Shown piece by piece: positions 43,082-47,550 of a stretch of 64,000 bases of DNA (positions within the stretch are counted from its first letter, which is position 1; every line of letters begins with the position of its first letter). The stretch lies in IMG/VR virus record IMGVR_UViG_3300012944_000002, positions 1-64,000 of that record, one strand, 5' to 3'. A program made the translations under genes and the position numbers. Source of the DNA: a virus. A model generated the notes under the pieces. That model ran no database searches and was not told the DNA's origin. It saw nothing but the letters and a program-made list of their open reading frames with translations.

Positions 43082-43347
43082 GCGGCGGAAGCTACGACTA
43101 CCTCTACTTCAACGCTCCCGAGATGGGTGGCCACCGAGGGCAACTGGAAGCGATGGCTGAGCGTCTGGACCAGCTGCCCTACGCCAAGGAAGCCGCAGCG
43201 GCGACTCGCCGCATCCTCCTCGCGCTTGATGACGAGGCGCTCGCCGAGGTGTGGCATGCCGTCGAGTGGTGGGACTCGGGTGACTACGGCGAAGACCAGG
43301 TCCGATCGGCCACCAGCAAATACGCGGAGAAGACCAGCCGGGGGTGA
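43078..43347 (+). CDS. hypothetical protein
   Basis: Track ORF 43078..43347, coupled on both sides. Confidence 0.55.
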   Translation: MSGGSYDYLYFNAPEMGGHRGQLEAMAERLDQLPYAKEAAAATRRILLALDDEALAEVWHAVEWWDSGDYGEDQVRSATSKYAEKTSRG

Positions 43348-45455
43348 TCGTGGCGTCCCCGGATTTCTCCGACGGTCTACTCGATCACCCCATGGCCGCG
43401 CCCGCGCGGGAAGCCTTTGCGGCCGGCTGGGCAATCTCGGGCGGGCCGATGACGGAACGGATCCGAGTCGCCAGTACCACCGCGGTCCGACTTGCCATCG
43501 AGTCCGCCGACGACCCGGACGCCCTCAAGGTCACCATCGACCTCGGGCGGCTGGAGGGCATGTGGGCGCTGCTGTTCCAGCGACGCGAGGAGCAGCAGGC
43601 CGCCCATATCAAGGCCGTTCGCAGCGAGTGGCGATCGCTCATCGACCGCGACGTCCTAGCCGCCGCAGTGGATCGCCTGCGAGGGCTGCTCGGTCTCGGT
43701 GAAGCCGACCGTGACCACTCGATCCGGGCGGACGCCCTCGCCGCCGCACAGGCCATGCTCCACGCTCTGCGAGACCTGACCGGCTGGCACGCGCTCCGCG
43801 ACAAGCTCACCGACGCCATCCGCGCCGGCCGGGCGGAGGGAATGGTCAACGCCGTCGCCATCGCCGCAGAACAGACAGCGGTCCTGGGGCTGGACTGGAA
43901 CATCGCCTTCCGCGACGCCTACGACTCCCTGGCGCGCCTCGACGAGATCTGGACCGACACCGACGGATGGCTCGCCAAGACCCTCGACCGGGCCACCGCC
44001 GACCTCGGCAGCACCCTCGCCGATGCTGCCGAACAGGGCCTGTCGCGCGAAGAGATGATCGACGCCGGGATGGACATCCTCACCGCCGACCGGGACGCCG
44101 TGGCGTTCGTCACCGACTGGGCCATGACCACCGCCGCCGACCAAGGCGCCCTGTCGCTGTACGCCAGCGAGGGTGTCTCGCAGATCGACATCATTTCGGC
44201 TGGCGACGGAAGGGTGTGCCCTGCATGCCTCGATGCCGAAGCGAAAAGTCCGTGGACCATGGGCGACCAGCCGCCCATGCCACTCCACCCGCTGTGCGTG
44301 GTCGGCTCAACTCGCGTTGCGGTCCCGGGTCGCGTTGTGCCCGCTGATATAGCGGACCGGCTGGCCCCTGACCCAACCCATGCGGGAGTTAGTGACTTTG
44401 GCGAGATTGGTTCGTCCGCCACATCCGCAGTGACAGGAGCCGGGAGCGACTTCGGCCGGGCGAATGTTGGGGCGGTTGCTGTTCGGGATTACGTCGGGGA
44501 TGTTGTCATCGTCCGCACGGCCTCCGGCAAGGAGTTGACCGCTACCCCGAATCACCCGGTAGCAACGCGGCTCGGCTGGGTTCCGATCGCGGAACTCAAG
44601 GTGGGAGATCACGTACTTAGCAGCACCCGGTCCGAGTGGAGTAGCTTCAGTGGCCCACACGTAGACGACGTCCCACCCAGAATTGAGGAGGTAGCGGAGT
44701 CGTTTCCCGTGACTCTTGGACCGGTGCCAACCTCCTCCGAGGATTTCCACGGCGACGGAGCCGGAAGCAACGTCCACGTTGTACGTACCGACGGCTTTCT
44801 GTGGGATCGCGGGGAACCCGGCAGTCAGCAGCATGTGGGCGAACCTGATCTCGGCGGGGGATACGTTGCTGGTTATGCGTCCTTCTCTGTGGAGCGCAGC
44901 GCTCATGAGTTCCTCATGGGTGCGCCGGACTCCGCGCCGCGCGGTGTGGGCAGCTTCGGAGAGGCGCGCTCTTTCCTCAGGGCTGGTGGCCGCCATGCGG
45001 ACGTACATGGCGGCACTGCGATCGCGGGGCTCAATCCCAGCCCTGCGCAACCTGATGCGGATGGCAGTGCGCCCGATGCCGAGCGCCTCCGACAGGGCCT
45101 TCTCGCTCTCCCCGGCCAGGTAGCGGGTGATCAGCGCCGAAGTGTCCACCGTGACGTGCTCGCGGCCCATGTTGCGCTCGCTGGAATTCCGGAGAGGAAT
45201 GTCGGCAGCCTTGAGGCGCGAATTGATCACACCCCTGCTGACGCCGAGGGATTTTGCGAGCGCACTCTGACTCTCGCCAGCGACGTAACGTCGGACGAGG
45301 TCGTCAATATCGAACTCCAGAGGTTTTCCGGGCACGTATACAACCTCGAAACGGTTGAGGGCTGGTATGTGGCTAATGGAATTCTAACCCACAACTGCCG
45401 TTGCACATACGCCGCCGATGTCGATCTCGCCCACTTCGCCAGCTGGTTCACCTGA
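43344..45455 (+). CDS. MuF / SPP1 gp7-like head morphogenesis protein, interrupted by an intein
   Basis: Track ORF 43344..45455. The MuF C-terminal motif DGRVCPACLD...PPMPLHPL-[367-codon insert]-CRCTY is split by Hint sequences. Confidence 0.85.
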   Translation: MIVASPDFSDGLLDHPMAAPAREAFAAGWAISGGPMTERIRVASTTAVRLAIESADDPDALKVTIDLGRLEGMWALLFQRREEQQAAHIKAVRSEWRSLIDRDVLAAAVDRLRGLLGLGEADRDHSIRADALAAAQAMLHALRDLTGWHALRDKLTDAIRAGRAEGMVNAVAIAAEQTAVLGLDWNIAFRDAYDSLARLDEIWTDTDGWLAKTLDRATADLGSTLADAAEQGLSREEMIDAGMDILTADRDAVAFVTDWAMTTAADQGALSLYASEGVSQIDIISAGDGRVCPACLDAEAKSPWTMGDQPPMPLHPLCVVGSTRVAVPGRVVPADIADRLAPDPTHAGVSDFGEIGSSATSAVTGAGSDFGRANVGAVAVRDYVGDVVIVRTASGKELTATPNHPVATRLGWVPIAELKVGDHVLSSTRSEWSSFSGPHVDDVPPRIEEVAESFPVTLGPVPTSSEDFHGDGAGSNVHVVRTDGFLWDRGEPGSQQHVGEPDLGGGYVAGYASFSVERSAHEFLMGAPDSAPRGVGSFGEARSFLRAGGRHADVHGGTAIAGLNPSPAQPDADGSAPDAERLRQGLLALPGQVAGDQRRSVHRDVLAAHVALAGIPERNVGSLEARIDHTPADAEGFCERTLTLASDVTSDEVVNIELQRFSGHVYNLETVEGWYVANGILTHNCRCTYAADVDLAHFASWFT
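44295..45395 (+). mobile_element. intein (Hint domain with non-canonical interior)
   Basis: Cys1 at 44295 (CVVGSTRVAV). Block B GKELTATPNHPVATRLGWVPIAELKVGDHV. C-terminus HVYNLETVEGWYVANGILTHN, followed by +1 Cys at 45396. Confidence 0.8.
44307..45335 (-). CDS. antisense-nested endonuclease gene: two HTH repeats plus Vsr/DUF559-like PD-(D/E)xK domain and Cys/His tail
   Basis: Track ORF 44307..45335 minus. GTG start with GAGG 9 nt upstream. Balanced composition, unlike other antisense ORFs. Third-position GC favours the minus frame here. Internal duplication LVRRYVAGESQSALAKSLGVSRGVINSRL / LITRYLAGESEKALSEALGIGRTAIRIRL. Nuclease-like core YNVDVASGSVAVEILGGGWH. Confidence 0.65.
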   Translation of the reverse strand: MPGKPLEFDIDDLVRRYVAGESQSALAKSLGVSRGVINSRLKAADIPLRNSSERNMGREHVTVDTSALITRYLAGESEKALSEALGIGRTAIRIRLRRAGIEPRDRSAAMYVRMAATSPEERARLSEAAHTARRGVRRTHEELMSAALHREGRITSNVSPAEIRFAHMLLTAGFPAIPQKAVGTYNVDVASGSVAVEILGGGWHRSKSHGKRLRYLLNSGWDVVYVWATEATPLGPGAAKYVISHLEFRDRNPAEPRCYRVIRGSGQLLAGGRADDDNIPDVIPNSNRPNIRPAEVAPGSCHCGCGGRTNLAKVTNSRMGWVRGQPVRYISGHNATRDRNAS

Positions 45456-45468
45456 CCCCGGAGATTCC

Positions 45469-45876
45469 ATGAGCAGCTACAAGCCGGCCCGGGTCCTGTG
45501 GAACCTGACCAGCGGCGCCACGATCCCCACCCTGTCCGGAGCGGCCACCACGAACGGCCCCACGATCAGCCTCGGCGACATCAGCGACGTGTGGCTCGCG
45601 GTCAACGTCACCGGCACTCCCACCGGCACGCTGCCGACTCTCGATGTCGGGCTGGATGTGCAGGACGCCGACGGCAACTGGTTCCCGACCGTCGTGAAGA
45701 TCACGCAGTTGACGGCCAGCGCGGGCCGCGGTTCGGCCTACGCCGGGCTGCACATGCCGATCGTCGCCTCCAACAGTGCTGCCCTCGTGCTTCCCGCCAA
45801 CGGGCGCGTCACCTGGACCCTCGGCGGCACCACGCCCGTCTACCCGCAGACGTCGATCTGCCTCTACGGCCGCTGA
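45469..45876 (+). CDS. hypothetical structural-region protein
   Basis: Internal ATG 45469 of track ORF 45418..45876, after GGAG. Confidence 0.55.
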   Translation: MSSYKPARVLWNLTSGATIPTLSGAATTNGPTISLGDISDVWLAVNVTGTPTGTLPTLDVGLDVQDADGNWFPTVVKITQLTASAGRGSAYAGLHMPIVASNSAALVLPANGRVTWTLGGTTPVYPQTSICLYGR

Positions 45877-45900
45877 AGGCCCTGACACCTTGGAGGATGC

Positions 45901-47550
45901 GTGGCCGCCATCGCCACGGTGTCCGGGACCGCCATCCGGCCCGGCATCTCCCGCAACAACCGGCTCTACACCCCACAGGCCATCGGCCGCATGGTGGAGC
46001 GCGCCAACGAACGCCTCGCCGAGGGCGACATGCCCCTGACGACGCTCACCCACCACGAGGCTGGTGACGACTCCACCCGCATTGTCGGCCGCATCACCCG
46101 CATCAACCAGGAAGCCGACGGATCCGCCTCATACGAAGCGGAGATCGCCGACACCAGTCACGGCCGCGACATCCTCGGCCTCGTCTCCGGCGACAGTCCG
46201 GCCCTCAAGGGCGTATCCATCCGCGGCGCATGGGTCGGCCCGGTCCGTCGCGAAGCCGGCCCCGGCGGCGTCGCCCTGGAGGCCGGCGACGACTTGGAAC
46301 TTCACGGCCTGGACTACACCCACAAGCCCGGCGTACCTGGCGCTGGCATCGAATCGGTGGCACTGGCCGGCGCAGAACCTCGCGAGTCCGACGGCACTGC
46401 TCGCGTTCCCATCACCGAGAGCGCCCCGGAGGCGAGTGTGACCATCACCGAGACCGCGGCCGAGAATGGCCCGTTCGCCGATCACGGCTACCGCGGCGAA
46501 CCCCGCTTCCCCGTCGGCACCCGTTCCGAGGCGAAGGCCGCGTGGCTGGCCCTGACGGAGTCGGCGAACACGCGGGACTACACCGCGGCGCAGCTCAAGC
46601 GCGTCAAGCAGCGAGCCGGCAAGGCCCTCAAGACCCACGGCGTGACCGTCGAATCCGTGGGTACCGAGAGCTGGCTCATCGACCCGCCCGCGCCCCTGAG
46701 CGAGTGCTTCGGCTACGGCGACGATCCCGGACACGGCGGCGATCTTGCCGTCACCATGTCGAACGGTCCGGTGACCGTCACGATCTCGTCCTGGTGCGTC
46801 GACCCCCACGATTTGATGGCCGTCGGCCGCGCGGCGATGACTGGGGCCTGTGGGGCGCTGGCCACCATCGACCCCGACATGGATGCCGACATCGACGTGC
46901 CCGGGGCCGACGCCGAGGACACCGACGGCGACTTGGGTGCAGCCGAGACTGCACCGTCCACCGAGCCGGCCGCGACTGTGGACGAGTCCGCCGCCACCAT
47001 CACACCCTCCACCCAGACCCCGGCCCCGGAGACCCCGGCCGCCGAACGCCCCACTCCTGAGGAGGAGCCCGCCATGGCGGAGCCCATCAACGCAGCGGAG
47101 ACCGCTGCCGCCCCCGCCGCCGGTGGGGTCGCCCTGACCTACGACCAGTTCCAGGAGCTGCTCGCGGCCGTCCGCGGCCAGGGAGGTTCGACGCCCGCGG
47201 AAGCGGCCCCCGCCGCTGCCGCCTCGGTCGCCGAAGCTGCCCCCGTGGTGGAAACCCCGGCTGCGGTCGCCGAGACCGAGGACCAGCGCATCCAGCGCCT
47301 CGTCCGGGAGGGCATCGCCGCCGCCCTCCCTGCGGCGATCCAGGAGAGCGTCGAGCAGAACGGCCCGCCCGCCCGCAAGGGCATCGTCCCCGGAGTCACC
47401 GAGCACACCGCCACGGTCACCCCCGGCCTGCCCGAGGGCGCCCCGGCGAAGCCCCTGCACGAGTACACCGACGAGGAATGGCGCGAGCACATCGCGCCGG
47501 CCGTCGTCGGGGCCGTGCTCGGCGGGCGCACCGTCGCCCCGGCCGCCTGA
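45901..47550 (+). CDS. prohead protease fused to scaffold-like Ala/Pro/Glu-rich C-terminal region
   Basis: Track ORF 45901..47550. RBS TGGAGGA. Lies between MuF and the major capsid gene. Globular N-terminal domain and a low-complexity acidic C-terminal half. Confidence 0.7.
   Translation: MAAIATVSGTAIRPGISRNNRLYTPQAIGRMVERANERLAEGDMPLTTLTHHEAGDDSTRIVGRITRINQEADGSASYEAEIADTSHGRDILGLVSGDSPALKGVSIRGAWVGPVRREAGPGGVALEAGDDLELHGLDYTHKPGVPGAGIESVALAGAEPRESDGTARVPITESAPEASVTITETAAENGPFADHGYRGEPRFPVGTRSEAKAAWLALTESANTRDYTAAQLKRVKQRAGKALKTHGVTVESVGTESWLIDPPAPLSECFGYGDDPGHGGDLAVTMSNGPVTVTISSWCVDPHDLMAVGRAAMTGACGALATIDPDMDADIDVPGADAEDTDGDLGAAETAPSTEPAATVDESAATITPSTQTPAPETPAAERPTPEEEPAMAEPINAAETAAAPAAGGVALTYDQFQELLAAVRGQGGSTPAEAAPAAAASVAEAAPVVETPAAVAETEDQRIQRLVREGIAAALPAAIQESVEQNGPPARKGIVPGVTEHTATVTPGLPEGAPAKPLHEYTDEEWREHIAPAVVGAVLGGRTVAPAA

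Follow-up and report, generated by a model that had tools for sequence, protein, structure and literature searches.

The stretch of DNA considered here, referred to below as the window, comprises positions 1 to 64,000 of the IMG/VR virus record IMGVR_UViG_3300012944_000002 (64,000 nucleotides, about 69% GC). Its MuF-like (SPP1 gp7-like) head-morphogenesis gene is interrupted by a class 1 intein, and the opposite strand of this intein contains a gene for a protein with helix-turn-helix (HTH) modules and a Vsr/EDxHD-like nuclease domain. We consider it probable that the two form a composite two-strand mobile element, in which a cis-splicing intein is combined with an antisense homing endonuclease. 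The same arrangement was found at all 118 non-redundant related loci; in these, substitutions follow the nuclease frame in the intein interior and the intein frame in the C-terminal Hint lobe.

Overview of the locus

The first-pass annotation of the window, made from the sequence alone, had given coordinates for the two open reading frames (ORFs), and these were borne out by the ORF listing. The features discussed in this study are as follows; pLDDT (predicted local distance difference test) refers to the AlphaFold2 models.

43344..45455, plus strand: MuF-like ORF, 703 amino acids, holding the 367-codon intein
43344..44294, plus strand: N-extein of the MuF-like (SPP1 gp7-like) head-morphogenesis gene, ending ...DGRVCPACLD...PPMPLHPL; gene caller's start at 43392
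44295..45395, plus strand: class 1 intein, 367 codons (Cys1...His-Asn367), supported by PF14890, TIGR01445/TIGR01443 and the gap relative to intein-less alleles
44331..44450, plus strand: disordered 40-residue loop in the Hint N-lobe, intein residues 13-52, pLDDT 27-41, opposite the nuclease Cys/His tail
44451..44708, plus strand: folded Hint N-lobe including block B, intein residues 53-138, pLDDT 80-94
44709..45251, plus strand: intein interior, residues 139-319, an open unstructured linker without a domain, pLDDT 24-41, no Pfam match
45252..45395, plus strand: Hint C-lobe, residues 320-367, blocks F/G GHVYNLETVEGWYVANGILTHN, pLDDT 79-95
45396..45398, plus strand: +1 Cys, first C-extein codon
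45396..45455, plus strand: C-extein CRCTYAADVDLAHFASWFT and stop codon, 15 of 19 residues identical to the C-terminus of the intein-less ortholog P0096
45335..44307, minus strand: antisense nuclease gene, 342 codons (342 amino acids), GTG start 45335..45333, TGA stop 44309..44307
45042..45308, minus strand: two tandem HTH modules, nuclease residues 10-43 and 65-98, supported by Pfam, AlphaFold2 helices and the 2lvs profile
44517..44886, minus strand: Vsr/DUF559/EDxHD-like nuclease domain, residues ~150-273, supported by profile, Foldseek and Pfam
44325..44453, minus strand: C-terminal Cys/His module EVAPGSCHCGCGG...GQPVRYISGHN, phrog_25114 with E 2e-9, pLDDT 83-90
44517..44708, both strands: dual-coded stretch of 64 codons, nuclease residues 210-273 versus intein residues 75-138, both AlphaFold2 models confident
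45347..45344, minus strand: candidate Shine-Dalgarno sequence GAGG, which lies 8 nt upstream of the GTG and is complementary to the Leu-Glu codons in block F (GHVYNLE)
45386..45381, minus strand: candidate -10 hexamer TAGAAT, 45 nt upstream of the GTG, from the block G Ile-Leu codons ATT CTA

The two ORFs are codon-aligned, with nuclease codon position 3 lying opposite intein codon position 1, and nuclease residue i pairs with residue 665-i of the plus-strand ORF. The nuclease ORF fills the intein except for 12 nt and 60 nt at its ends. The GC content at third codon positions (GC3) is 0.60-0.68 in the plus-frame interior, 0.76-0.94 in the exteins and 0.74 in the minus-strand ORF; A/T therefore occupies about one third of the third positions of the interior, and not roughly half, as had been counted by hand. 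Genes for tRNAs or tmRNA were not found in the 64-kb window by ARAGORN.

The intein and its host gene

The intein splicing domain PF14890 (Pfam) is split over residues 375-684 of the plus-strand protein (E 2e-9; 37.7 bits, cutoff 35.8). Two NCBIfam profiles mark the ends of the intein, TIGR01445 (intein_Nterm) at residues 318-408 with 25.3 bits against a cutoff of 24.5, and TIGR01443 (intein_Cterm) at residues 664-685 with a score at the cutoff. Cys318 of the ORF is the block A nucleophile (CVVGSTRV), Hint block B reads TPNHP, and the C-terminal junction is ...GILTHN/C (the slash denotes the junction). Alignment to intein-less orthologs, which the first-pass annotation had asked for, fixes the borders exactly at 44295..45395, where that annotation had placed an intein with Hint blocks: P0096 reads ...MPSHPV/CRCVPAATVDLAHFATWFT and the window ...MPLHPL/367 residues/CRCTYAADVDLAHFASWFT, the gap of 367 codons is colinear relative to P0096 and L008 at both the protein and the DNA level, and an intein-less allele of the L008 type reads ...CACCCCGTG/TGCCGCTGC... 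across the insertion site.

The N-extein is 77% identical over 317 amino acids to P0096, which stems from a syntenic head module (portal, MuF-like protein, 135 amino acids, 551 amino acids, capsid); in the window, the portal gene, the MuF-like gene and, further on, the major capsid gene follow in the same order. The profile TIGR01641 (phageSPP1_gp7) matched the N-extein weakly (E 5e-4; 20.3 bits, under the cutoff of 39.65), and PF04233 (MuF) gave no match at E<=1 in the host protein of the window. The C-terminal motif D.R.C..C...HP./CRC and the portal-adjacent position fit MuF, and homologous inteins occupy the same site in PF04233-positive MuF proteins among the relatives tested. The nearest orthologs of the host gene come from Streptomyces genomes, and the window, a stretch of an 86-kb metagenome contig in ENA (ERZ27253147 k141_3893502), appears to belong to a Streptomyces-like (pro)phage.

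In the AlphaFold2 model of the intein, based on 24 homologs, only residues 1-12, 53-138 and 320-368 are confident, and these correspond to the Hint lobes, whereas residues 13-52 and 139-319 remain below a pLDDT of 50. The loop formed by residues 13-52 is absent or short in Vibrio and Salmonella inteins. Besides the split splicing domain, no Pfam domain, and in particular no endonuclease domain, was detected in the plus-frame interior, and the ratio of nonsynonymous to synonymous differences per site (pN/pS) lies there at 0.7-1.2, so that the description of this part as filler holds. Protein splicing is to be expected from the intact catalytic residues, the plus-frame constraint in the Hint C-lobe and the essentiality of MuF.

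Two further observations concern the host gene. About 80 intein-less Streptomyces orthologs (~485 amino acids) possess an N-terminal PF13563 domain (2H phosphoesterase / 2'-5' RNA ligase-like), which is missing from the MuF-like gene of the window (start region 43344..43400). Window residues 1 to ~11 match ortholog residues 1-11 and the alignment picks up again at ortholog residue ~150, which suggests an internal deletion of ~140 codons; the intein-bearing relatives P0090 and P0091 (862-863 amino acids) retain the domain. In addition, the PHROG family phrog_15127, labelled 'head protein', matches the plus-frame intein including its unstructured interior (E 1e-28). This family was evidently built from MuF-intein proteins and has taken in the antisense shadow of the nuclease gene, and it is a trap for homology-based annotation.

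The antisense protein

The AlphaFold2 model of the 342-residue antisense protein, computed from an alignment of gene-called homologs, has a mean pLDDT of 88 and is composed of a first HTH (residues 10-43), a second HTH (65-98), a helical region (106-171), an alpha/beta core (177-273) and a structured tail (~300-330). The two HTH motifs, the nuclease motif YNVDVA...VAVEILGGGWH and the tail motif CHCGCGG...YISGHN, which had been read from the letters, are all present in the translation. The HTH region is matched in Pfam by Sigma70_r4 (E 4e-6), Sigma70_r4_2 and HTH_58, and its profile matches the tandem-HTH structure 2lvs (E 1e-3). When the profile of the nuclease domain was compared with the whole PDB, only 3hrl (DUF559-like, E 9e-4) and 3r3p, the homing endonuclease I-Bth0305I (E 2e-3), were retrieved; at the domain level, Foldseek placed 3r3p at a probability of 0.94 with a template modelling (TM) score of 0.56-0.57. 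A whole-chain Foldseek search returned nothing at E<=1e-3, because the protein is multi-domain, and only domain-level matches are informative. The Pfam family MTES_1575 (PD-(D/E)xK) matched the nuclease domain weakly (E 0.027), and a single-sequence phmmer search of the antisense protein against PDB gave noise only.

The conserved residues of the nuclease domain are E162, D188, E197, H204, H209 and R212. E162, D188 and H204 align to E170, D196 and H213 of I-Bth0305I. In the A1 alignment of nuclease homologs, E162, D188 and E197 are invariant and H204 nearly so; the window copy keeps all invariant residues and has K211 where most relatives have Glu. The C-terminal Cys/His module is 54% and 46% identical to two tandem N-terminal copies in P0087, a metagenomic HNH_3 protein of 256 amino acids, with the repeat pattern C.CGCG...G.P.R[YF][IV].GH. 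Since the module recurs in this unrelated protein, conservation of the tail cannot reflect the Hint frame. The tail is probably a Zn-ribbon-like DNA-binding module, and its occurrence in both proteins suggests that such a module has been shuffled among phage homing nucleases.

Homologs of the antisense frame appear among gene-caller predictions on 88 contigs, several of them named 'very-short-patch-repair endonuclease' by JGI, and homologs have an ATG start where the window has GTG. Together with the Pfam HTH matches, the model confidence and the 3hrl and 3r3p matches, this upholds the earlier proposal of a real gene for an HTH and Vsr-like nuclease protein. The homologs occur in forms of ~340 and ~288 amino acids, the first HTH being missing in about half. 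The short forms had been regarded as tail-less, which proved wrong: they lack the first HTH and keep the tail.

Related loci

Relatives were collected by tblastn of the antisense protein against GenBank phages and by scans of metagenome and IMG/VR contigs, from which the best 80 matches per collection, i.e. the best 160 of ~1,000 detected relatives, were taken; after removal of duplicates, 118 loci with GC contents of 0.40-0.72 remained in all. The tblastn search matched 129 GenBank phage records (Gordonia, Salmonella Jerseyvirus, Pseudomonas, Klebsiella, Vibrio and others), among them the Gordonia phages Fosterous, Vivi2, Affeca and Angelicage. In four phage regions inspected, representing three lineages, the match lies antisense to an annotated MuF or intein-containing head gene; annotated carriers with the same architecture are Fosterous, SGPC, PK2 and Vibrio 1.113.A.

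At all 118 loci, the nuclease gene is antisense to, and codon-aligned within, an open intein frame. That related inteins should conserve the antisense ORF had been set beforehand as a decisive point, and it is kept in every one. An opposite-strand ORF covers the nuclease span fully in 117 cases, always in the same codon register, and contains a Hint C-lobe in 116. The apparent exception, L035, whose opposite ORF seemed to cover 59%, came about because two hidden Markov model domain matches had been merged; its intein frame is intact. The relatives tested have PF04233 MuF exteins with the intein at a ...HP(x)/C(R/Q/D)C site, and both frames are open also in low-GC Vibrio and Salmonella phages. 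No free-standing relative of the nuclease was present among the loci examined, i.e. among the best 80 matches per collection.

The window copy is divergent. Its nuclease has no relative above 62% amino acid identity in any collection searched and is 38-40% identical to the antisense ORFs of the Gordonia phages Fosterous and Vivi2. When the gene was compared by Megablast with 50,697 phage records, no match was obtained, and a genome-contig scan with the single protein yielded 75 pattern matches, none of which was confirmed.

Among the four annotated phage records, the antisense coding sequence is called only in Salmonella phage PK2 (L004, PV446483.1; XRA40007.1, hypothetical protein); the other records show the head morphogenesis gene only, in one case labelled NAD+--asparagine ADP-ribosyltransferase. 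A copy in a bacterial genome, that of Nonomuraea basaltis (L169; VCJS01000035.1, 55913-63920), consists of an intein with the antisense gene, and NCBI annotated both overlapping genes; the host protein has 575 amino acids with a short MuF-like N-extein. Its neighbours are an RHS/PT-HINT toxin with Barstar, an Endonuclease_7/HTH gene and FtsK, with no obvious head module. Annotation assumes one strand per gene, and such nuclease genes are therefore almost never annotated. As carriers such as the Gordonia phages Vivi2 and Fosterous and the Salmonella Jerseyviruses are cultivable, it can be tested directly whether the antisense gene is expressed within a strongly transcribed late operon and whether an intein nuclease acting in trans brings about homing.

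Selection in the two reading frames

Differences were counted by codon position in a codon alignment of the 118 nuclease ORFs. The Nei-Gojobori method (NG86) was applied to 87 pairs to obtain ratios of nonsynonymous to synonymous substitutions (dN/dS) with Jukes-Cantor (JC) correction, while a sliding profile of 20 codons gives uncorrected pN/pS; of all these values, only the contrasts within the locus are robust. In the interior, differences peak at nuclease position 3 (0.42-0.58) compared to position 1 (0.27-0.42). The maximum in the Hint C-lobe is at nuclease position 1, corresponding to intein position 3 (0.46 versus 0.16). Opposite the Hint N-lobe, nuclease positions 1 and 3 reach similar values, and very low ones are found at position 2. 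The JC-corrected dN/dS values of the segments were as follows.

Hint C-lobe: nuclease frame 1.48, intein frame 0.10
HTH modules: nuclease frame 0.43, intein frame 0.83
Helical region: nuclease frame 0.33, intein frame 1.16
Nuclease core: nuclease frame 0.26, intein frame 0.87
Opposite block B: nuclease frame 0.55, intein frame 0.45
Cys/His tail: nuclease frame 0.39, intein frame 0.89

The uncorrected pN/pS values of the interior are 0.35-0.57 in the nuclease frame (0.35 in the nuclease core) versus 0.88-1.11 in the plus frame. In the Hint C-lobe, the plus frame has 0.18-0.21 versus 1.4 in the nuclease frame, and for the Cys/His tail and the opposite loop the values are 0.53-0.65 in the nuclease frame versus 0.84-0.92 in the plus frame; pooled over the pairs, the tail module gives 0.55 and 0.92, respectively. 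Around block B, where the crossover is located, the plus frame dominates in the sliding profile (0.39 versus 0.75 in the nuclease frame). Selection thus acts on the nuclease frame in the interior, on the plus frame in the Hint C-lobe and on both around block B.

The first-pass annotation had postulated true dual coding over about the last 115 nuclease codons, which overlap the Hint N-lobe. The principle stands and the extent is smaller: of ~130 nuclease codons opposite the Hint N-terminal region, ~40, belonging to the Cys/His tail, face the disordered loop and no structural Hint residues, whereas for ~64 codons the models predict, with confidence, folded parts in both proteins, and the constraint on the two frames is centred on block B. 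In this stretch, the Hint N-lobe faces helices and strands of the nuclease core, and the nuclease sequence YRVIRG is the exact antisense of block B, TPNHP. A further ~28 codons overlap at the Hint C-lobe. Conversely, the conserved plus-frame string EDFHGDG is what the codons of the catalytic SVAVEIL yield when read on the opposite strand. As a natural case, the locus shows how the two strands can code for two proteins in codon register, with regions that can be assigned to one frame, to the other or to both.

Maintenance of two open frames

In the shared register, stop codons of the plus frame arise only from TTA, CTA or TCA codons of the nuclease. These were not found once in 28,146 nuclease codons, where ~340 were expected from extein usage (103 loci, those whose N-extein could be used). 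In the window by itself, an open plus frame over 340 nuclease codons has a chance of ~0.05 when calculated from extein codon usage; the median chance per locus is 10^-3.1 at GC <0.5 and 10^-0.5 at GC >0.66. High GC, by which the coexistence of the two frames had been explained, makes double openness cheap in the window, but the same openness occurs in phages of 40-50% GC, and the family-wide pattern is one of active selection for readthrough. Such selection is expected, because the host needs spliced MuF.

Candidate expression signals

The GTG start of the nuclease gene (45335..45333) is the antisense of the block F codon for His664, and the GAGG sequence reported upstream of it is present, at a distance of 8 nt. 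The block G codons ATT CTA, from which the candidate -10 hexamer TAGAAT is derived, are very rare at the GC content of the window. A TAnnnT hexamer opposite the last eight intein codons was found at 48 of 61 loci with GC >=0.62, compared to 1.0% of N-extein control windows; the hexamers of the family are mostly TACAAT, TATAAT, TACGAT and TAGAAT. In the underlying dipeptide Ile-(Val/Ile/Leu), the second codon ends with A in 41 of 50 GC-rich loci versus an extein background of 3.6%. For the TAnnnT count, junctions were detected by the tolerant procedure (116 loci; the strict one gave 31). The spacing between -10 and start is given for the window alone, as a start-codon heuristic over the loci was inconsistent and was discarded. 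The TAnnnT motif in block G is hypothesised to be a -10 promoter element.

Proposed mechanism and alternative explanations

We propose that the plus-strand MuF-like gene would be translated straight through the class 1 intein, whose Hint lobes, parted by a 181-residue unstructured linker and the 40-residue N-lobe loop, would splice in cis and restore a functional MuF (...HPL-CRC...). From the minus strand, signals of its own in blocks F/G would yield a modular Vsr/EDxHD-like endonuclease, which would most likely cut MuF alleles that lack the intein, close to the conserved HP(x)/CRC site, when phages co-infect a cell or a phage meets a prophage; repair by recombination would then copy intein and nuclease together (homing). 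The phage would select against stops in the plus frame and thereby force the nuclease gene to avoid TTA, CTA and TCA, whereas the element would select for nuclease function, and ~64 codons around block B would serve both proteins. The anatomy of the locus, its homologies and predicted folds, the selection in each frame, the conservation over the family and the sporadic distribution are observed, and from them we infer that the antisense gene is transcribed and translated, where its product cuts, that the element homes and that the intein splices. Of the closest relatives of the extein, ~80, mostly genes of Streptomyces prophages and 65-81% identical, have no intein; the nearest intein-bearing extein is 51% identical, and the identities of the inteins (42-52%) are decoupled from those of the exteins (29-51%). 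So patchy an occurrence agrees with horizontal acquisition, be it by homing or by ectopic invasion.

The antisense ORF might be the non-coding shadow of a conserved plus-frame domain in a high-GC genome. Long antisense ORFs are indeed common at ~69% GC, many spurious ones being present in the ORF list of the window, the chance of double openness in the window alone is ~0.05, and the plus-frame interior matches the PHROG 'head protein' profile with an E value of 1e-28. That match is, however, itself a shadow of the nuclease gene. Interior substitutions fall at nuclease position 3 with a JC dN/dS of 0.26-0.43 versus 0.83-1.16 in the plus frame, and the plus interior is disordered without a Pfam domain, while the model of the antisense protein reaches a pLDDT of 88 and shows HTH and Vsr-like domains. 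Phages of 40-50% GC have both frames open as well, and the tail module recurs in an unrelated protein. A shadow origin is refuted by the frame-resolved selection. A decaying passenger, inserted once in an ancestor, inactive in the window and kept only by the need for MuF readthrough, is very unlikely. It would agree with the homing-cycle model, which predicts decay of the endonuclease after fixation (bioRxiv 10.1101/2025.01.02.630785), with K211 of the window versus Glu in most relatives and with the lack of a relative above 62% amino acid identity in the collections searched. Selection for an open plus frame, however, would neither preserve an open antisense frame nor hold pN/pS of that frame below 1; every locus has an intact antisense ORF, the window retains all invariant residues, and the expression signals show synonymous-codon bias.

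Of a different kind is the idea that the gene is real and not, or no longer, a homing endonuclease, having become a domesticated DNA-binding or regulatory protein (e.g. for late-gene or MuF control) or a conflict nuclease residing in the intein. The HTH modules resemble sigma-70 region 4 and the anti-terminator Q, catalytic positions differ from branch to branch, with His in the window in place of the last EDxHD Asp, several groups of VSR-like inteins look vertically inherited (bioRxiv 10.1101/2025.01.02.630785), and the Nonomuraea copy lies in a neighbourhood that is not a head module. The gene is nevertheless strictly tied to an intein at the same MuF site, in the same register in 118 of 118 loci, its distribution on the extein tree is sporadic and the divergence of intein and extein is decoupled. 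E162, D188 and E197 are invariant and H204 nearly so (A1 set), pN/pS of the nuclease core is 0.35 (JC 0.26), and the closest solved relative is the proven homing endonuclease I-Bth0305I (PMC3239194). We regard this alternative as unlikely.

Several observations weigh against the homing-element interpretation preferred here. The fourth acidic residue of EDxHD (D222 of I-Bth0305I) aligns to His209 in the window. The Vibrio/Salmonella branch has Asp at the position equivalent to 209 and Ser or Ala in place of H204 (GGGWS/GGGWA), and the active-site string is VAVEILGGGWH...H209 in the group of the window and VEVHR... without GGGWH in Gordonia phage Fosterous and in Nonomuraea (L169). With active-site residues differing between branches, activity of the window copy is not assured. 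A scan for sigma-70 sites with two hexamers in 44000..46000 found none and no -35 element, along with one chance-level terminator-like site. The nuclease-frame GC3 of 0.74 lies under the host-typical value of ~0.9. Finally, the pairs from which the pN/pS values were pooled are not independent, and NG86 gives biased estimates for genes that overlap. As to its history, the element may be an interlocked two-strand cassette, with expression signals in blocks F/G and ~64 dual codons, in which intein and nuclease co-evolved as a unit and spread over phages of Actinobacteria and Proteobacteria; the chances of this, compared to a stand-alone homing endonuclease gene that recently landed in a mini-intein, appear evenly balanced.

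Comparison with known systems

The first-pass annotation had named no described intein whose homing nuclease is a separately translated antisense gene. Such inteins have been described: anti-sense VSR-like homing endonuclease inteins were reported in minor capsid proteins of actinophages (Gosselin, Arsenault and Gogarten, bioRxiv 10.1101/2025.01.02.630785), and antisense or out-of-frame LAGLIDADG inteins (Synechocystis dnaX, Chloroflexus SpoVR) have been known since Gorbalenya 1998 (also Gogarten 2002; both as cited in that preprint). The preprint, which covers actinophages only, found an AlphaFold match to Vsr (1CW0), an HHpred match to 3R3P and extra helical regions. For the cyanobacterial dnaX intein with its out-of-frame endonuclease, a low dN/dS in the endonuclease frame and a raised one in the intein frame were reported (bioRxiv 10.64898/2026.09.14.751524).

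The window resembles the inteins of Gosselin et al. (2025) in that the intein is contiguous, the host frame is open, the in-frame interior is unstructured and a separate, complete antisense ORF codes for a Vsr-like nuclease; MuF (minor capsid) proteins are among their hosts. It differs in being only 38-40% identical to the Gordonia copies and in sharing about 64+28 codons with the folded Hint lobes, and the preprint contains no frame-resolved selection, stop-avoidance or promoter and ribosome-binding site analysis for such inteins. Their hosts are proteins of actinobacteriophages (minor capsid, terminase and others); the host gene of the window is MuF-like, lies in a head module of a metagenomic contig and has its nearest orthologs in Streptomyces genomes, and relatives occur in phages of Proteobacteria as well. 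I-Bth0305I of the EDxHD family (Taylor et al. 2011, PMC3239194) shares a homologous catalytic domain and N-terminal HTH-type modules and is likewise phage-borne and tied to a self-splicing element; its gene lies, however, on the sense strand within a group I intron and not antisense within an intein, and it uses NUMODs, whereas the window protein has sigma-70 region 4-like HTHs and a Cys/His module and His209 in place of D222.

In the fractured genes (Dassa et al. 2009, PMC2677866), a free-standing gene for a Vsr-like or GIY-YIG endonuclease is located between the halves of a split intein. Common to both systems are a Vsr-like gene between the N- and C-terminal Hint subdomains of a phage gene and short overlaps with the intein parts, but the fractured hosts consist of two ORFs and splice in trans, whereas the window and 118 of 118 relatives keep a single plus-strand ORF; as the host frame is open through the nuclease gene, splicing would occur in cis. 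The antisense and out-of-frame LAGLIDADG inteins also place the endonuclease in a frame other than that of the intein and differ in nuclease family (Vsr-like here), host genes and lineages. Canonical bifunctional inteins with in-frame LAGLIDADG or HNH domains agree in the Hint blocks, the position of the endonuclease within Hint and the presumed homing cycle, but the nuclease of the window would be a separate antisense gene product and no domain of the excised intein.

The system is useful for studies on the evolution of overlapping genes and on the origin of bifunctional inteins in the sense of 'splicing first, endonuclease invades later'. The architecture as such is not new, and the window represents a new divergent copy of a published arrangement. 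What goes beyond the published descriptions that were found is the occurrence of the same element outside actinophages (Salmonella, Vibrio and other phages), the frame-resolved map of selection with full avoidance of stop-generating codons, the two-fold coding stretch of ~64 codons and the candidate expression signals in Hint blocks F/G.

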